The notes beneath the pieces were generated by a model, which saw only the letters and a program-made list of their open reading frames with translations, was not told the DNA's origin and did not search any database. Positions 1 to 8,601 of a DNA stretch of 32,000 bases are shown here, piece after piece (the first letter of the stretch is position 1; each line of letters begins with the position of its first letter). A program made the position numbers and the translations under genes. This stretch comes from Candidatus Heimdallarchaeota archaeon (lineage in GTDB: Archaea; Asgardarchaeota; Heimdallarchaeia; Heimdallarchaeales; Kariarchaeaceae), in assembly GCA_030149205.1 (NCBI GenBank), contig JASBSB010000006.1, positions 390,001 through 422,000 on the forward strand. The letters are read 5' to 3'.

Positions 1-630
1 AATCAATGGACGAAATCTTCTTGACTCTCCACCAATTATTGCCACCATAAGAGGAAGACCCATAAGACCTGCTCGTTGAAATGAGGCAGGAGTCCCCCCA
101 ACTCCCAACCAGATAGGAAGTGAGGTCTGGACAGGCCTAGGATAGATGGACTGATTGTACAAGGCAGCTCGAAACTTTCCTGACCAGTTGATTGTAATGT
201 TATCTCTAATTCTAAGCAAAAGATCGAGTTTTTCTGCGAACAAGGCATCATAGTCATGCAGGCTGTACCCAAACAAAGGATAAGCCTCAGTGAATGACCC
301 TCGGCCAGCCACAATCTCAGCCCTCCCGTTTGATAAAAGGTCAAGTGTTGCAAAGTTCTGAAATACCCTTACAGGGTCTGCCGTGCTTAAAACTGTAACT
401 GCACTTGTCAATCGAATATTTTGGGTGACCTGTGAGGCAGCAGCAAGAATCATATACGAAGCTGAGTCTAGGAAATCCTCCCTGTAATGCTCACCAAGCC
501 CATACACTGACAGCCCAAATTTGTCTGCCACCTTTATCCGCTCCAAAACCTCCTGCATTGATTGAACATTCAAAGAGACATCCTTTTGACCTCCCCGTGA
601 TGCTGCAAAACTGTCTACGCCAATCTCCAT
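1..630 (-). CDS. LLM-class (luciferase-like) flavin-dependent oxidoreductase, 5' part; runs off the window edge
   Basis: Not in the ORF track. Manual translation from ATG at 630 is open to base 1: MEIGVDSFAAS...GLGEHYREDFLDSA...IRLTSAVTVLSTADPVRVFQNFATLDLLSNGRAEIVAGRGSF...YPRPVQTSLPIWLGVGGTPASF..., matching the typical bacterial LLM motifs GEHH/Y, DPVR, GRAE..GRGS. Confidence 0.92.
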   Translation of the reverse strand, partial: MEIGVDSFAASRGGQKDVSLNVQSMQEVLERIKVADKFGLSVYGLGEHYREDFLDSASYMILAAASQVTQNIRLTSAVTVLSTADPVRVFQNFATLDLLSNGRAEIVAGRGSFTEAYPLFGYSLHDYDALFAEKLDLLLRIRDNITINWSGKFRAALYNQSIYPRPVQTSLPIWLGVGGTPASFQRAGLMGLPLMVAIIGGESRRFRPLI

Positions 631-679
631 AAATATAGATTCTAAACAGAGATTTAAAGACTGATTTTAACACTATTCC
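540..679. repeat. Source copy 1 (LLM first ~30 codons plus ~50 bp upstream) of the diverged repeat at 8462-8601
   Basis: Ungapped by-eye alignment of 540-679 to 8462-8601 (offset 7922), e.g. aaaacctcctg[c/t]attgattgaacatt[c/t]aaa..gacatccttttgacctcc..gtgatgctgcaaaact and cagagatttaaagactgattt. Confidence 0.95.
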
Positions 680-1991: not shown

Positions 1992-2149
1992 ACAAAATTT
2001 TTGATTTATTATTGAAAATCTGATCAAAACCAAACTTTACTCAAATATTTTCTCGTTGGATTATTGGGCGACCAATATTTTTTGTAAGTCAAAAAATTTT
2101 GATCGGAAATTCAAAAGGGTTTTATAATATCATTCTTTTATCCTATTTG

Positions 2150-3124
2150 ATGAAGCTTTTGAGCTTACTGCCACTTTTTATTCTCCTCATTATAGCTTTT
2201 GGTGGAGGAACAATGAAAGAGGTAAATAGTTCATCATTAAATCCAATTATTCTCGATAATCCTGCACCCAAACGTGGGATCTTCTACAAGGATAACAGGA
2301 CATATTATCTATCTTCTAAAACTTCTGGAACCTATCAGGTCGAATCAGTCTATAATAACGGGTCATTCTTGACAGTGCATGATCTGGGAAAATCTGAGCC
2401 TTGGAGCTTATCTGGATATGAAAACTCTCTTTACATCTCTTTTCTGAATGGGACTGTATTGGAGATGTCAACTGATGGTATACTTATACAAAGGCTTCAA
2501 GTTTCAAAACTTTCATATTATGGAGCAAATGTAATATATTTTTCGCATTATAACCAATCCTCTTACATCCTAGTTACTTCACACGGAAACATAACTTTTT
2601 TTGATTCCAGCCTCAATTTTATAAAAACCCGGAACCTCGTTGATATCAGCAACTACCCTAAAATTTCAAATAAAAACGAGAACAGCTTCACCAGTGGGTG
2701 GATGAATTCAACAACCTTGGTTATGATCGCACAACCAGGGTACCTATTTACGTTTAACAAGGGAAATTTTTCAATTGTGGATAATACGACAATATTAAAT
2801 CCCGTTAATGATCCATTGAAGACCTTCGTGGCATATCTGGGGATTAGTGTAGATCGAAACAGACTACTTGTGATGGTAGAGTCATTTGGAGGTTCACTTC
2901 AACACAGACTTTATAGCATAGAATATAAGAAGATTATGGGGCATAAAACAGTGTATCTCTCACAGGTATTGTACACACAGGTTCAATCAACAGTTAGTAA
3001 ACCGATTCCACCTGAAGGATTTAATAATATTATATACCTACTTATCGCTGCAGTAGTCTTAGGGGCAGTGACACTCATACTTTACATATATCGATCAAAC
3101 AAGGAGAAAGAAGATTCATCATGA
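2150..3124 (+). CDS. Secreted, membrane-anchored beta-propeller-like protein
   Basis: Start chosen at ATG 2150, giving signal-like MKLLSLLPLFILLIIAFG. Beta-rich repeats, many N-x-S/T sequons, and C-terminal TM IIYLLIAAVVLGAVTLILYIY with charged tail. ATGA overlap with the next gene. Confidence 0.7.
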   Translation: MKLLSLLPLFILLIIAFGGGTMKEVNSSSLNPIILDNPAPKRGIFYKDNRTYYLSSKTSGTYQVESVYNNGSFLTVHDLGKSEPWSLSGYENSLYISFLNGTVLEMSTDGILIQRLQVSKLSYYGANVIYFSHYNQSSYILVTSHGNITFFDSSLNFIKTRNLVDISNYPKISNKNENSFTSGWMNSTTLVMIAQPGYLFTFNKGNFSIVDNTTILNPVNDPLKTFVAYLGISVDRNRLLVMVESFGGSLQHRLYSIEYKKIMGHKTVYLSQVLYTQVQSTVSKPIPPEGFNNIIYLLIAAVVLGAVTLILYIYRSNKEKEDSS

Positions 3125-4134
3125 GAAAATTATGGTTATTTGTGATTATTTTTATATTCCCATTTAACATCGTTGCTACACCTACTGATTTTAAACTCAT
3201 ATCTGATGGAAAAGATATAATTGGTGCAATAGGTCTACCTTCACCCTATTTTGGCCCTAGTGATCAAACAGCGGAATCAGACTTTCTTAAAGATTATGTG
3301 TATCCAAACTTGTTCAAGTACAACTCGTCATTGTCTTTTGGTCGGGATGGGGTGAACAGAGTCTTCTGGGTAGTACTTCGTCCGAACATCTGGATTGGGA
3401 ACACAAATAGCTTTCCTAATTTCTGGAATGCCTCAACTAATCCTTCTAATATCCCTTCAAATTACACTGGTATAAGCTTTACATTGAAATTTACCAATGT
3501 AGATATAAGTGCGATTACAACGACCTATATACCACAGAAGCTAACACCATGTTGTACAATTGGTGATTACAAATATGACAAGATTAACTTGAATGAAAAA
3601 TCAGATTGGTCTGACCTATTAACCATAACTGGAAATACAGTTAATGTAACCCTTAGAACTTTTCTAACTGCAGATGCTTTCGGTATTCCTTATGAGGTAA
3701 TAAAACACCCTGCATCAGTAAGTTTCATATTAAACGGGGATGGGATCCCAAAAATGAAGCAAATTCAGTTTTTACCAAACTCAATTATACTCCCAAATCA
3801 TGTATATTTAGGACATAATAGAAACATCAGTTTACCTACCGGTTCTACCATACCGTTGACAGAAAGTGTGTTAATAGGTGGGATTCCTGCTGGTTCTCCT
3901 TCAGCAGGAATAGATTTCTTCAAGGTAATCGATGGAGTGATCTCCCCTACCCTTGGATTGGCAACAACGATTGGGGTGTCAAGTACGAGCAGTACTTCAG
4001 CAGTCTTTGGGACAACTATCCTCCTGACCAGCTACCAATTGTTTGGGAAAAAGAGAAAGAAAGCAATTGCATCAGGAAAGGACAAAGGAGGTTATAATAC
4101 CATGATAAAGAATGCTTTGAGGATAAATAAATGA
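3121..4134 (+). CDS. Secreted/surface protein of unknown function with hydrophobic C-terminal anchor and basic tail
   Basis: Signal peptide MRKLWLFVIIFIFPFNIVA, Ser/Thr-rich hydrophobic C-terminal stretch followed by GKKRKK. ATGA overlaps at both ends. Confidence 0.7.
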   Translation: MRKLWLFVIIFIFPFNIVATPTDFKLISDGKDIIGAIGLPSPYFGPSDQTAESDFLKDYVYPNLFKYNSSLSFGRDGVNRVFWVVLRPNIWIGNTNSFPNFWNASTNPSNIPSNYTGISFTLKFTNVDISAITTTYIPQKLTPCCTIGDYKYDKINLNEKSDWSDLLTITGNTVNVTLRTFLTADAFGIPYEVIKHPASVSFILNGDGIPKMKQIQFLPNSIILPNHVYLGHNRNISLPTGSTIPLTESVLIGGIPAGSPSAGIDFFKVIDGVISPTLGLATTIGVSSTSSTSAVFGTTILLTSYQLFGKKRKKAIASGKDKGGYNTMIKNALRINK

Positions 4135-6647
4135 GAAAAAAGATAAATCTGTTTATTTTGCTATTTTTGATTTTACATTTTTCTAATTCACATTTTGTCA
4201 CACAATTATCTGTTCAAGCGCAACAAAATGAGTCAATGATTAAGAATAAAAGCAAGGTGGCTCAAATTAAAACAACTAATACCTCTAGTGGAATTCCATT
4301 CAGTCTGTTGACTGATTGGTTACAGATACCATCTGTAAAATTGAATTCTCACTCCTTAGACATACTTGTCATGGGACAGCCTTTAGGAAACTATTCGACA
4401 ACCTATACCTTTAATTATTTTGATTATCAAAATATATCATCTGTTAGTCAGGAAACACTTGATTTAGCATATTATCTTTCATTCATTAATAATCAGACCC
4501 ACAAAAATTTAAATATTTCTTGGGTTGGTATTGATTTTTTAAACATCAACAGTACATCTTTGATCAAATATATTGATGGTAATTTTAACAGGTTTAAGTT
4601 TGATTTGGTTCTTGTATTTGGAGCTTACGTAGGATTGCCAAACGATAATCTTGCACAATTTTTTATTAAGTTTACGAATTTTGGCATCCCTGTCATTACT
4701 ACATTTCAAAACTCATTTCCAGGAGGAAGCGTTTATTCTCCAGCAAATATACCCTCAGTTACAAGCATTTTAGGTTTGACTATAAGTACCAACAAGTTTA
4801 GTGACCTTCTCAATCCAAATTTGTTTGGTTTTAAATTTACTCCTTCACCAGTGTTTAATCCAGACTATAAATTGTACCCCAACTTTCTGATTCCGGGGGT
4901 CAAATTACGGTTGATAAATTCTTTGGAAACTCCACAATATTTGTACTCAATACACTTACCAACTCTTACTTTTGCATTAGGATATATTACATTTCTATTG
5001 AATAATCCAGACCAATCTCCAAAGCAGATATTAGGTATTCTTAGTCGGAATGGTCATTTTATCTCAGACAAACCGGGTTCACAGCAGGGTTATGGGATAC
5101 CTCAGTTTTTAATTTCATCCTATTCAAATCTGAAATTGCTCCCTCTTGTACTAGATCCTTTAAGAACCCAATATAAAAACAACACTGTTAAAATGGCCCC
5201 TCTACAAACTGTATCCACTTATCTTCTTTTTAGCTCGGAAAATGCTGTAAACGTTAATTCTGTTAAACTAATCGATAAATCTAATAGAACTTATTTCGAA
5301 AGATATAATTTAAGGGCTACAACAGCTCCTGAGATTCAGGAAATTAACTTTACACTCTCCTTTGATAAGAACAGGTTACCCACAGGTCCAAGTTTTATAA
5401 AAATAAATTTTCAGATCCCTGATGTTAAAACCCCCTCGAATTTTTATTTTGAGGTTAATGCCACCTCCAATTCGGAGAATTCAGTTGCTTTGACAAACAT
5501 CACAGTGGATCCGACCTTAAAGTTATTGGGGTTCTCAAGTCTGTTTGAGAGAGATGGTTACTATAGACGAAATTCACCGTATTCAAGACATTACACTTTG
5601 TTTGAAATACTTTATAAGCAAGGTTATCGTTTTTCTAACTTTGATTCATCAAAAACTTTAGAAAATGAGTTAAGCAGCCCCACAGTATTATCGTTGTTAG
5701 TTATTGACCCAGAAAATGTTTCTTTCTCGTTTTTGAACTCTATCAATACGTATGGTGAACGAGGAGGAAACTTAATGATATTTCTTGACTATTTCAATGG
5801 GTCACAACCATTTAAAGGGCAGAGTAAATTTAGTATAGGTGAGTATCAGGTTGACCCAGAATTGAAATATTACTTCGCAAGAAAGGGGATTCAATTAAAT
5901 GAGCAGGATCTAAATCACTGGAATTTTTCAGTGGATGCTATAGATGATGGAGTAAGCAAACATCCATTTGTCCTACGTCCTTGGGTCTTTTCGAAAGGTA
6001 TAAACTCAAGTTTTCCACTCTTTCCGTTCCGCGGATATTACATTGATACAAAGAAGAGTAAACTAAATGAGAAGATGAGTCTTACTGATTTTTCTAGGAT
6101 AACAAAAATAGGATCAGCTTTACAAAATGGAGATGGAAAGATAATTTTAGTAGGTTCAATCTCGCCCCTCCTATCATATTTTTCTGATAAATATCAATTT
6201 ACGTTACCTAGTCCATCTACAGTATTTGAAAGGATAATTGAAAGGACAGAGAATTGGGGTGGTAAAATTCTAGAATTTAAACATATCCCCTCTTTAAACC
6301 CCTTAACAGACACTTTAGAATTTTCATACAAAGTTGCCATTGAAAAATCGTTAAGGTGGAGTATAGATATAATTTCAGGAGAGAGAAGAAATATAATAAA
6401 TCTAACTAACTCTGGAAATTTTGGGACTATAGCATTAAAATTTGATGGTTTTATGGAAGGGAACTTCAATATCACAATTAATCTAACATATGGTTCTTTT
6501 ATTTCTGACTCCAAATCCATTGAGGTGAATATCCAGTATAGTGTGTATAGATTGTCAATGTTAGTCCTATTATGGGTCTCAGTTCTAACGTACACAATTT
6601 ATAAGCTCCTGAAATACAGAGGAAGTGAAGGTAAAAATGGAAGATAA
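4131..6647 (+). CDS. Membrane-anchored S8 subtilase-like protein with Site-1-protease-like architecture; catalytic motifs absent
   Basis: Signal peptide; subtilase scaffold motifs VITTFQN..GSVYSPANIPSV, PNFLIPGV, SPKQILGIL..QQGYG; downstream segment HYTLFEILYKQGY...LLVIDPE...GGNLMIFLDY; C-terminal TM. No D-T/S-G, H-G-T or G-T-S motif found. Confidence 0.65.
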   Translation: MRKKINLFILLFLILHFSNSHFVTQLSVQAQQNESMIKNKSKVAQIKTTNTSSGIPFSLLTDWLQIPSVKLNSHSLDILVMGQPLGNYSTTYTFNYFDYQNISSVSQETLDLAYYLSFINNQTHKNLNISWVGIDFLNINSTSLIKYIDGNFNRFKFDLVLVFGAYVGLPNDNLAQFFIKFTNFGIPVITTFQNSFPGGSVYSPANIPSVTSILGLTISTNKFSDLLNPNLFGFKFTPSPVFNPDYKLYPNFLIPGVKLRLINSLETPQYLYSIHLPTLTFALGYITFLLNNPDQSPKQILGILSRNGHFISDKPGSQQGYGIPQFLISSYSNLKLLPLVLDPLRTQYKNNTVKMAPLQTVSTYLLFSSENAVNVNSVKLIDKSNRTYFERYNLRATTAPEIQEINFTLSFDKNRLPTGPSFIKINFQIPDVKTPSNFYFEVNATSNSENSVALTNITVDPTLKLLGFSSLFERDGYYRRNSPYSRHYTLFEILYKQGYRFSNFDSSKTLENELSSPTVLSLLVIDPENVSFSFLNSINTYGERGGNLMIFLDYFNGSQPFKGQSKFSIGEYQVDPELKYYFARKGIQLNEQDLNHWNFSVDAIDDGVSKHPFVLRPWVFSKGINSSFPLFPFRGYYIDTKKSKLNEKMSLTDFSRITKIGSALQNGDGKIILVGSISPLLSYFSDKYQFTLPSPSTVFERIIERTENWGGKILEFKHIPSLNPLTDTLEFSYKVAIEKSLRWSIDIISGERRNIINLTNSGNFGTIALKFDGFMEGNFNITINLTYGSFISDSKSIEVNIQYSVYRLSMLVLLWVSVLTYTIYKLLKYRGSEGKNGR

Positions 6648-8322
6648 GCTTATTGATAAAGTTTTAGGTCAATCAAAGGCTGTGGAGGTGATAAAACAAA
6701 CGGCAAGAAGCAAACGTCATCTCTTGTTAATTGGGTTACCTGGGACTGGTAAAAGTATGTTAGCAAAAAGCCTTTCAGAAATATTAGAGCATGGGAAAAC
6801 TCATGATATTTTGGCCAGAAATAATCCAAACGATGAAAATTCCCCGCTAATCGAGATAGTTGATACAGGATTAGGACCTACAATTATAGACAAAGAGAAA
6901 AGGGAAGCACGAAAATTGGTTCAGAAATATGATTTGGTAACTCAAATTGGTATATTAATTGTTGTTGGATCATTATTGTCTTTAATTTTATTGAGACAGC
7001 AATTTGGATTTATCGACTTTTTGTTTTCGGCTCTAATCCTTATTTCTTGGTTGATGTATAGAAGACAGGCGAGACCAGATGCTTTAAAGATAATCCCAAA
7101 TCTATTAATAGGAAACCAACTGGGGAAGACTCCGTTTATTGATGCATCAGGGTCAGCAAAAAATATTCTCTTGGGTGATGTAAAACATGACCCTTATCAA
7201 AGTGGTGGCTTAGAAACCCCACCTAACCATTTGTTAATTCCAGGATTAATACATAAAGCAAATGGAGGTGTGCTGTTTATTGACGAAATTGGAACATTAG
7301 ATGCTGAAACACAATTTTATCTCTTGACCGCAATGCAAGAGAAGCAATTTCCAATTGAAGGGAGAAGTCAGGGGAGCTCAGGTAGTATGGTTAAGACAGA
7401 ACCTTTACCTTGTGACTTTATTTTAGTCGCTGCAGGAAACATGGAAACCATCGAAAGATTACACCCCGCATTAAGAAACAGAATACAAGGATATGGAACT
7501 GAGATATTGATGGATAAAAGTATGAAAATTGACCAAATTACATCCATAATAATCAAAAATTTTCTTACTCAGGAAATAGGAGAAAATGTACTTATTCAAA
7601 ATAAAGAGGAAGTAATTGCAAGACTCGTTCAATATGCCGAGGTCTTGTCACAGAGAGATGGTTACATTACTCTTCAATTTAGAAGCATTGGTGGCTTGAT
7701 TAGAACAGCACTTACAATTTCAAAAGATAATATTTTGTCCCCAATAGTATTAAAAGAAGCTTTAAAGTTACAGATACCTCTTGAAGTACAAGTTGAGATT
7801 AATAAACTAAGTGAAATCTACAATAAAGGACAAAATTTTTGGTCAGCAGGGAAGTCTTGGTTTCTCATGGAAGATGAAGGAAGAAGTATTTTAGTAAATG
7901 ATTTTCTAGATTCTGAAGAAAAATCATCTCTTCTTTCAAGTTTTATAACAAAACTTTCTAAGAAATTTGCCTTTGTGGAGACAGATGATAAATATTCAGA
8001 ATTCTTAAATTCCTATGTTAAAGAAAAGAAATCAATACCCTCATCCTTTTTGGTTCAAATCTGGTCTAAAAGAACAAATGTCTGCATAAACCGAAATTTG
8101 ATCATTTTAGGTGACGTAGATAAAAATTCGATGGCTTTACCGTTGAACAATATTGCATACCTGATTGATTTAGCACAAAAAATTGGCTTTCAAGATGTAA
8201 TAGTATTGACAACATTGGATGAAAGATATAGTTCTCCTTTCACAAAGAAAGTTCATATTGTATATGATTTAAATAGTTTACTCGACTTAATCAGAAATGA
8301 ACATCTTGAATCTGATAGTTAA
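6637..8322 (+). CDS. lonB: Archaeal LonB-family membrane-anchored AAA+ ATPase with degenerate protease domain
   Basis: Walker A GLPGTGKS, two-TM insertion, GDVKHDPYQSGGLETPP, ANGGVLFIDEI (Walker B), VAAGN (sensor 1) and HPALRNRI (Arg finger). Start moved to ATG 6637, overlapping the upstream stop. Confidence 0.9.
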   Translation: MEDKLIDKVLGQSKAVEVIKQTARSKRHLLLIGLPGTGKSMLAKSLSEILEHGKTHDILARNNPNDENSPLIEIVDTGLGPTIIDKEKREARKLVQKYDLVTQIGILIVVGSLLSLILLRQQFGFIDFLFSALILISWLMYRRQARPDALKIIPNLLIGNQLGKTPFIDASGSAKNILLGDVKHDPYQSGGLETPPNHLLIPGLIHKANGGVLFIDEIGTLDAETQFYLLTAMQEKQFPIEGRSQGSSGSMVKTEPLPCDFILVAAGNMETIERLHPALRNRIQGYGTEILMDKSMKIDQITSIIIKNFLTQEIGENVLIQNKEEVIARLVQYAEVLSQRDGYITLQFRSIGGLIRTALTISKDNILSPIVLKEALKLQIPLEVQVEINKLSEIYNKGQNFWSAGKSWFLMEDEGRSILVNDFLDSEEKSSLLSSFITKLSKKFAFVETDDKYSEFLNSYVKEKKSIPSSFLVQIWSKRTNVCINRNLIILGDVDKNSMALPLNNIAYLIDLAQKIGFQDVIVLTTLDERYSSPFTKKVHIVYDLNSLLDLIRNEHLESDS

Positions 8323-8374: not shown

Positions 8375-8601
8375 TCCAACAATAGTTAAAGATTTATGAT
8401 CCTTAGGTTTTCATATACTAAATTTTAGACGTTATAAATTGAGTTCACGACTTAAATTATAGGTCTAAAACCTCCTGTATTGATTGAACATTTAAACTGA
8501 CATCCTTTTGACCTCCATGTGATGCTGCAAAACTATCTACTCCAATTTCCATTAGCATAGATTCTAATCAGAGATTTAAAGACTGATTTCATCACTAATC
8601 C
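8375..8601. repeat. Chimeric duplicated segment: 3' end of the HAAS gene fused to the 5' end and promoter of the LLM gene
   Basis: 8375-8473 aligns to 8737-8836 (one 1-nt gap) and 8462-8601 aligns to 540-679. The two sources share gctccaaaacct (540-551 and 8825-8836); the chimera has ggtctaaaacct at 8462-8473. Confidence 0.93.
8457..8552 (-). pseudogene. 31-codon truncated paralogue of the LLM N-terminus (MEIGVDSFAASHGGQKDVSLNVQSIQEVLDL*)
   Basis: Manual translation; ATG at 8552 and TAA at 8457-8459 just past the junction. Confidence 0.8.

Follow-up and report, generated by a model that had tools for sequence, protein, structure and literature searches.

We analyzed a four-gene operon in a 32,000-nucleotide stretch of DNA from a Candidatus Heimdallarchaeota archaeon (contig JASBSB010000006.1, positions 390,001 to 422,000). 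We will call this whole stretch the window, and positions below are counted within it. The operon lies on the + strand at 2150-8322. Its first three genes encode single-pass surface proteins, the third with the domain architecture of the site-1 protease (S1P), and its fourth gene encodes a paralog of the archaeal membrane protease LonB that has an intact AAA+ motor and has lost its catalytic dyad. These are known parts in a new combination. In some Heimdallarchaeia they may well form, though we hold this tentatively, an accessory membrane module that is conserved and in which a non-proteolytic AAA+ ring remodels or organizes the surface proteins that are encoded with it.

The four genes are co-oriented, and neighboring members all overlap. 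The open reading frames (ORFs) extend over 2099/2150-3124, 3121-4134, 4131-6647, and 6625/6637-8322. Genes 1 and 2 share an ATGA at 3121-3124, genes 2 and 3 share another at 4131-4134, and the ATG of gene 4 (6637) lies upstream of the stop codon of gene 3 (6645-6647), which gives an 11-nucleotide overlap. These coordinates bear out the arrangement that was reported in a preliminary description of this DNA. GGAG/GAGG-like motifs are found upstream of all three internal starts.

Gene 4 (P0004/P0005; 6637..8322) encodes an AAA+ module followed by what is probably a degenerate C-terminal protease-fold domain. Its Pfam matches are to AAA-type families, including AAA_32, which is LonB-like. It matched positions 10-401 of the 608 in the LonB model TIGR00764, with 357.8 bits, which is below the equivalog threshold of 516.6. 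The ATPase motifs are all intact, as the preliminary description had claimed: in the motif columns of the alignment we find Walker A (GLPGTGKS, 6733..6756), the pore-1 residue Tyr191 (7195-7197), Walker B (D220/E221, 7282-7287), the sensor-1 Asn272, the arginine finger (R284/R286), and the sensor-2 Arg360. All of these motifs are also intact in the four closest relatives (P0006-P0009). Between Walker A and Walker B lies a two-helix membrane insert (residues 104-145, 6934..7059). The helices are at residues 104-122 and 127-145 by hydrophobicity, or at 83-122 and 129-148 in the AlphaFold2 (AF2) model, and basic residues flank both ends of this transmembrane (TM) hairpin. The sequence can be aligned to LonB from Thermococcus onnurineus (TonLonB) across the AAA+ module and the membrane insert. 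The AF2 model has a predicted local distance difference test (pLDDT) score of 80, with low values at residues 408-462; its input alignment included canonical LonB proteins. In structural comparisons with VIA-align 2, residues 6-565 of the model align to residues 36-619 of TonLonB (3k1j_A, Z = 28.2), and the model also matches the ATPase domain of TonLonB (4zpx_A, Z = 28.8).

The Ser-Lys dyad of LonB, as well as its membrane insert, have been described (PMC9569914). In gene 4, the protease-fold domain (7822..8319) has Ser470 (8032-8034) at the position of the serine and Leu513 (8161-8163) at the position of the lysine, so the preliminary description was correct that the catalytic lysine is gone. 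Across the five members of the paralog clade, the serine position reads S/Y/T/E/S and the lysine position reads L/L/N/R/S, and the GG that precedes the lysine is gone. Thus, all five have lost the dyad, and orthologs with the ordinary catalytic residues were not seen in the clade. The domain has no match to Lon_C in Pfam by sequence, and its mean identity is just 21% within the clade, as compared to 59% among canonical LonB proteins. Because the alignment of the AF2 model to 3k1j_A extends as far as residue 565, gene 4 probably keeps a remnant of the protease fold. This domain is cytoplasmic. The preliminary description had placed the pseudo-protease domains outside the cell, and for the Lon domain this is incorrect.

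The paralogs form a distinct lineage. In a phylogenetic tree, the five of them make up one branch (SH-aLRT support of 97), apart from 30 canonical LonB proteins, and they do not branch with the host's own LonB. Their end branches are long (1.35-2.28, as compared to a median of 0.22). The preliminary description had suggested looking for a separate, canonical lonB gene in this genome, and there is one (C4:271383-273170, 819 bits). The AAA+ core is somewhat less conserved within the paralog clade than among canonical LonB proteins (mean identities of 57% and 67%, respectively), and the TM insert shows the reverse (40% versus 17%). The second TM helix of the insert carries a clade-specific motif, LF..L...W.MYR, with L38, F39, L42, W47, M49, Y50, and R51 invariant (numbering of alignment A6). 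The TM helix of gene 3 holds an invariant tryptophan (Trp815). The helix-2 motif and Trp815 are candidate contact residues.

Gene 3 (P0003; 4131..6647) has no match in Pfam (including PF00082) or NCBIfam at E values up to 0.1. A word-based protein search found only the protein itself, and a profile search of the Protein Data Bank (PDB) with the gene-3 alignment found nothing. Structural comparison was more informative. The top Foldseek matches of the AF2 model were to S1P (9csd_A, E = 3e-11; and 8uw8_A), followed by ScpA, Vpr, Tk-SP, and plant subtilases. With VIA-align 2, residues 56-329 of the model aligned to residues 3-275 of subtilisin (Z = 12.8, root-mean-square deviation of 3.8, 213 residues), and all 50 of the top entries were subtilases. 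Profile-profile comparisons gave similar results. With hhalign, residues 163-326 of the gene-3 family aligned to five S8 domains from this same genome (Prob = 81%, E = 1.2e-5). Also, residues 164-552 were collinear with 818-residue proteins from Asgard archaea that contain S8, GATase-like, and TM segments (Prob = 82%, E = 1.1e-5). These 818-residue proteins have a clear Peptidase_S8 domain (194 bits), a C-terminal TM helix, and weak matches to ABC_transp_aux, DUF4350, MBTPS1_4th, and IFT52_GIFT (PF23090, PF09822, PF14258). Three homologs of P0003 have weak matches to PF09822 as well. Finally, ESM features rank gene 3 nearest to an archaeal S8+DUF4350 cluster (0.90) and to eukaryotic MBTPS1 clusters (0.89 and 0.88). 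Because Foldseek, the collinear hhalign alignment, and the ESM features agree, we assign gene 3 to the S1P type: it comprises a subtilase fold (residues 55-330, 4293-5120), a beta-sandwich (5178-5540), a GATase-like domain (from 5553), a TM helix (residues 805-826, 6543-6608), and a short tail. The domain order and the pro-domains of S1P have been described (PMC11231238). In gene 3 there is no pro-domain: the fold starts at about residue 55, right after the signal peptide, and this point is aligned to residue 3 of subtilisin.

The structural models and alignments support gene 3 being a subtilase-fold protein that lacks the Asp and the His of the catalytic triad. Where an active subtilase has its catalytic Asp, gene 3 has Gly82 (4374..4376), which is invariant in the family; this placement is from a global hhalign alignment that has low confidence there. 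More broadly, the alignment of five sequences has no invariant Asp or His at residues 64-160. The oxyanion Asn is not conserved in the family either. The preliminary description stated that the Asp, His, and Ser motifs of the subtilase were all missing. This stands for the Asp and the His, and it is less certain for the Ser, as the invariant Ser273 (4947..4949), in an S-x-x-x-P motif, may hold the nucleophile position. When we compared the family to active Asgard subtilases with hhalign, Ser273 and Pro277 fell on the catalytic Ser and the Pro that follows it in the motif; when we compared it to this genome's S8 domains, Ser273 was one residue off the nucleophile, so the assignment is ambiguous. 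Judging from these residues, gene 3 is likely to be catalytically disarmed. As an aside, the genome holds at least 14 distinct ORFs with Peptidase_S8 above the Pfam cut-off, and several of these are over 800 residues long.

Genes 1 and 2 encode orphan surface proteins. Gene 1 (P0001; 2150..3124) has a signal-like N-terminus, a beta-rich ectodomain, a clear hydrophobic helix near the C-terminus (3029-3085), and a short basic tail. It has no match to any Pfam family. A search of the Atlas with ESM features gave only beta-propeller leads, at 0.85, which are weak and below the threshold. Gene 1 is homologous to the first gene of two other loci, L004 and L019 (22% identity, E = 1e-7). Gene 2 (P0002; 3121..4134) has a signal peptide, an ectodomain of its own, a Ser/Thr-rich C-terminal anchor, and a basic cytoplasmic tail (roughly 30 residues, 4018-4131) whose C-terminal end carries a conserved motif. 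Within this tail, I329, A332, and N336 are invariant. We found no relative of gene 2 in Pfam, in the PDB (by profile search with its alignment), or in the Atlas (by feature search). Homologs of gene 2 do adjoin the Lon paralog in three other loci (L004, L019, and L006; E = 7e-27 to 3e-18). Each of genes 1-3 has a hydrophobic, signal-like segment at its N-terminus, and these three genes encode single-pass surface proteins with the N-terminus outside and the C-terminus inside. The signal peptides and anchors in the preliminary description were thus seen again, with the qualification that the anchor of gene 2 is weakly hydrophobic and falls under the Kyte-Doolittle cut-off.

The preliminary description also noted many N-glycosylation sequons in the first and third proteins. 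Indeed, gene 1 contains 9 sequons and gene 3 contains 20, as compared to 5.1 ± 2.0 and 11.8 ± 3.0 in shuffled sequences of the same composition. Gene 2 contains about as many as its shuffles (5 versus 4.2), and the Lon paralog contains none (0 versus 3.5). The genome encodes an oligosaccharyltransferase (STT3/AglB). Given these counts, the sequon-rich ectodomains are probably glycosylated.

If these genes comprise a module, then they should be found together in other genomes, as the preliminary description proposed to check. The Lon paralog adjoins a homolog of gene 3 in 6 of 6 independent loci (the window, L004, L005, L006, L020, and the contig that encodes P0130), and every homolog of gene 3 with a visible neighbor adjoins a Lon paralog. 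In the other metagenomic loci, homologs of genes 2-4 lie side by side, in two different orders. In L004 (from GCA_015522385.1) and L019, the order is gene 1, gene 2, gene 3, and then (where visible) the Lon paralog. In L006, L005, L020, and the P0130 contig, the Lon paralog precedes gene 3, and gene 2, where present, precedes both. The surface proteins are just 22-28% identical across loci and the Lon paralogs are 41-54% identical, and no fewer than six loci have uninterrupted reading frames.

We also estimated the ratio of nonsynonymous to synonymous substitution rates (dN/dS) for genes 1-3 from the close pair L004 and L019, which ends before the Lon gene. The values were 0.26 for gene 1, 0.29 for gene 2, and 0.13 for gene 3. 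Because these ratios are well short of the value near 1 that the preliminary description associated with a decaying operon, the operon is under purifying selection and is not decaying. At a shorter evolutionary distance, independent vent and sediment metagenomes contain fragments of all four genes that are 98-99% identical to the window and have no insertions or deletions. The preliminary description named three signs by which its interpretation could fail: a lack of synteny elsewhere, a dN/dS near 1, and orthologs that retain their catalytic residues. None of the three (0/3) was found. Therefore, we consider the operon to be a real, selected module.

Some observations weigh against our interpretation of the module and of its parts. 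The module is very rare and patchy: a full-length match to gene 3 was present in just 2 of 400 genomes from the phylum, and the module was not found in three genomes from the same genus that are 82-89% complete. This distribution implies that its role is dispensable. At the strain level, we found 15 nonsynonymous and 8 synonymous differences, mostly in genes 1 and 3, in a partial list that is drawn from low-depth contigs; these changes fit both variable surface proteins and relaxed constraint. The AF2 model of gene 3 was built from five sequences and has a mean pLDDT of 47.9, which is low confidence. And the invariant Ser273 may, to judge from its conservation, indicate some residual or non-classical catalysis.

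Other searches for the module gave a consistent picture of its rarity. The gene-3 family has 4 representatives among 1.84 billion proteins. A scan of metagenome contigs with the gene-3 alignment found nothing, and a scan with the alignment of the clade's TM insert found partial matches (34-56%), none of them at within-clade identity. In the same-genus genomes, the proteins that flank the operon are around 50% identical or absent, so insertion cannot be distinguished from loss. A genome from the same genus does contain a far more divergent three-gene analog, on the minus strand of contig G055:C34 (L042; 11656-12972, 9045-11651, and 7259-9061). It encodes single-pass surface proteins of 438 and 868 residues, and then a LonB-like ATPase of 600 residues in which the AAA+ motifs are intact but the C-terminus is unrelated. 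The 868-residue protein is a weak hit to the gene-3 profile (E = 1.7e-5 in a search of five proteins).

How might a non-proteolytic ring act on its surface partners? Inactive Lon-like domains in RadA/Sms and ComM have a ring-holding role. By analogy, the dead Lon domain of gene 4 would serve solely as a scaffold that keeps the AAA+ ring together. The unusually conserved TM hairpin would pack against the one TM helix that each partner has, and the ring would use ATP to pull on the short, basic tails of the partners in the cytoplasm or to remodel them. Of these tails, the conserved one of gene 2 would be the best candidate. As a result, the sequon-rich, ligand-binding ectodomains would be extracted, repositioned, or assembled, without being degraded. 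The pseudo-subtilase might be a subunit for binding or scaffolding, in the manner of mycosin in the ESX complexes of type VII secretion; mycosin is a precedent for a non-catalytic, structural role for a subtilase (PMC5082899). We also ran a complex prediction for the Lon paralog with the TM helix and cytoplasmic tail of gene 2; its score was 0.00, which carries no weight either way.

A more specific and more ambitious version of this idea is that the operon encodes a previously undescribed archaeal machine that works across the membrane. In such a machine, a LonB-derived, non-proteolytic ring would be combined with an S1P-like pseudo-subtilase, and ATP hydrolysis in the cytoplasm would be coupled, via the co-evolved TM hairpin and partner helices, to the extraction, the display, or the signaling state of glycosylated receptors. 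We consider this rather doubtful. If it is true, then Asgard archaea would have their own version of a eukaryotic arrangement, in which a pseudoprotease works with an AAA+ dislocase, and this version would use the S1P-type scaffold of the eukaryotic secretory pathway. We found no paper that describes this combination of genes, but our coverage of the literature was incomplete, so its novelty is not proven.

We considered four other explanations. One is that the surface proteins are degraded after all: the dead paralog might be an adaptor for regulated proteolysis that co-assembles with the canonical LonB or hands its substrates over to it. The same genome does encode a canonical LonB with an intact dyad, and, by the structural alignment, the paralog retains the ring-forming architecture of LonB from end to end. 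However, the regions that would form the surfaces of a mixed ring (the TM insert and the C-terminal domain) are just 13-14% identical to canonical LonB proteins, the paralog clade does not branch with the host's LonB, and the operon has no positional link to lonB. We view an adaptor as unlikely. To an export or surface-assembly apparatus, akin to type VII secretion, we assign a similarly small chance. In this scenario, the ring would energize the passage or display of substrates, the subtilase-like protein would stabilize the complex, and structural components would come from genes 1 and 2. ESX systems offer a parallel, as they include a membrane-anchored subtilase with a non-catalytic, stabilizing role (PMC5082899), and their loci also contain a gene for an AAA+ ATPase; also, the pore loops of the Lon paralog are intact and the translation of the four genes is apparently tightly coupled. 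But neither the operon nor the adjacent genes encode a polytopic, channel-forming membrane protein or a candidate substrate, the neighbors are unrelated, and apart from P-loop matches there is no sequence relationship to Ecc proteins.

The operon could also be an accessory conflict, defense, or exclusion module, in which a horizontally-moving pair of an AAA+ protein and a subtilase-like protein is accompanied by surface receptors that evolve fast and serve to detect viruses or competitors or to block them. The rare and patchy distribution, the very long branches, and the many nonsynonymous changes between strains in genes 1 and 3 all fit this proposal, and pairs of AAA+ proteins and subtilases are known among defense systems (IetAS in PADLOC). 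Yet PADLOC's IetA matches the Lon paralog at residues 14-55 alone (E = 1e-4), and genes 1-3 have no PADLOC matches, including none to IetS for gene 3. Furthermore, there is no mobile-element family among the neighboring genes that we scanned, the GC content resembles that of the surroundings, and the dN/dS of 0.13-0.29 indicates purifying selection. We rate a defense role as slightly less probable than either of the two preceding explanations. Finally, the operon could be a decaying duplicate that has no function, given that catalytic residues are gone from two protease-type domains, that the former protease domain of Lon is poorly conserved, and that the module is absent from close relatives. 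This is very improbable and is already contradicted by the data on selection and conservation: intact frames occur in six or more loci at 22-54% identity, every AAA+ motif is invariant, dN/dS is 0.13-0.29, and independent samples hold copies that are 98-99% identical and free of insertions or deletions.

In the sequence at 2114..2130 (+ strand), TTTATAATA comes after a purine-rich run, and the two together resemble an archaeal promoter element (BRE/TATA, where BRE is the B recognition element) and lie ~20-35 nucleotides upstream of the ATG of gene 1 at 2150. By the archaeal promoter consensus, this is a putative promoter, which would give an mRNA with a short leader or none. A scan for bacterial promoters and terminators gave the same counts as shuffled sequences. 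The upstream neighbor is a DUF4260 gene, and downstream there is a convergent HAAS/PadR pair and a methyltransferase; these are unrelated to the operon. The operon's GC content is that of its surroundings, and none of the scanned neighbors belongs to a mobile-element family. The host assembly is 3.3 Mb and 93.5% complete. In a contig from the source sample, the intergenic region at 8467-8601 has another alignment, with 16 differences, at about window positions 545-679; this second site is about 820 nucleotides upstream of window position 1500. An antisense ORF of 133 residues within gene 3 (6194-6595, minus strand) is probably spurious.

It is useful to compare the module to systems that are better understood. 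ESX loci encode, besides the membrane-anchored mycosin, the AAA+ ATPase EccA. The mycosin MycP resembles gene 3 in being a subtilase that a C-terminal TM helix anchors in the membrane, and it is the presence of MycP, rather than its protease activity, that stabilizes the membrane complex (PMC5082899). In contrast to gene 3, MycP retains its catalytic triad, and the ATPase of the Heimdallarchaeia module is LonB-derived, membrane-embedded, and archaeal. Genes 1 and 2 and the neighboring genes have no matches to EccB, EccC, EccD, or EccE, and the sole match to EccA is a Walker-A stretch (E = 5.6e-4).

There are other Lon-type proteins that have lost an activity. MtaLonC is the mirror case of gene 4, with a dead ATPase and a live protease. 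RadA and ComM contain an inactive Lon-like domain; they are soluble and act on DNA. LonC and ComM were among the structural matches of the gene-4 model; none of these proteins is known to be inserted into the membrane or linked to surface proteins. In eukaryotes, endoplasmic reticulum-associated degradation (ERAD) includes Derlin, a catalytically dead membrane protein with a protease fold, which works with the cytoplasmic AAA+ unfoldase p97/Cdc48. The operon would share this logic without homology, as Derlin has a rhomboid fold and p97 belongs to the classic clade of AAA proteins, so the resemblance is a functional analogy alone.

The closest relative of the motor is the archaeal membrane LonB, as represented by the protein from T. 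onnurineus (3K1J and 4ZPX). Gene 4 shares with it all of the AAA+ motifs and the two-helix insert, and in the AF2 model its C-terminal domain aligns to the Lon protease domain. Unlike LonB, gene 4 has a protease-fold domain whose first half is shortened and modeled with low confidence; Lon_C is not detected, the Lys and the GG are lost, and the Ser is not conserved. Also, gene 4 exists in addition to the canonical LonB of the same genome, and it is fixed next to genes for surface proteins. The defining feature of Lon proteases is that an unfoldase is coupled to a chamber for degradation. A lineage that is conserved and under selection, that has given up proteolysis but retained the motor and the membrane anchor, and that is fixed beside genes for surface proteins suggests that, at the archaeal membrane, a Lon-type motor has work to do other than degradation. 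The rarity of the module limits its general importance, and with just four genes it is small enough to be testable biochemically.

The closest relatives of gene 3 are S1P (MBTPS1) and the archaeal subtilases with S8, GATase-like, and TM segments. They share a signal peptide, subtilase and GATase-like domains with an Ig-like beta-sandwich between them, a C-terminal TM helix, and a short tail. Unlike S1P, gene 3 lacks the pro-domain, the catalytic Asp and His, a conserved oxyanion Asn, and any Pfam match to S8 or MBTPS1. Gene 3 is also coupled to an AAA+ gene, whereas the active Asgard homolog that we examined (L043, G307) stands alone. Apparently-active membrane subtilases of ~810 residues with the S1P-type architecture are found in other Asgard genomes from the same phylum (L043-L046, G305-G308; for instance, L043:1694-4117), and the Atlas contains an S8+DUF4350 cluster from Thorarchaeota. 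We found no paper that links MBTPS1 to Asgard archaea. That Asgard archaea have the S1P-type architecture in apparently active as well as probably disarmed versions bears on the origin of S1P, the protease of the eukaryotic secretory pathway.

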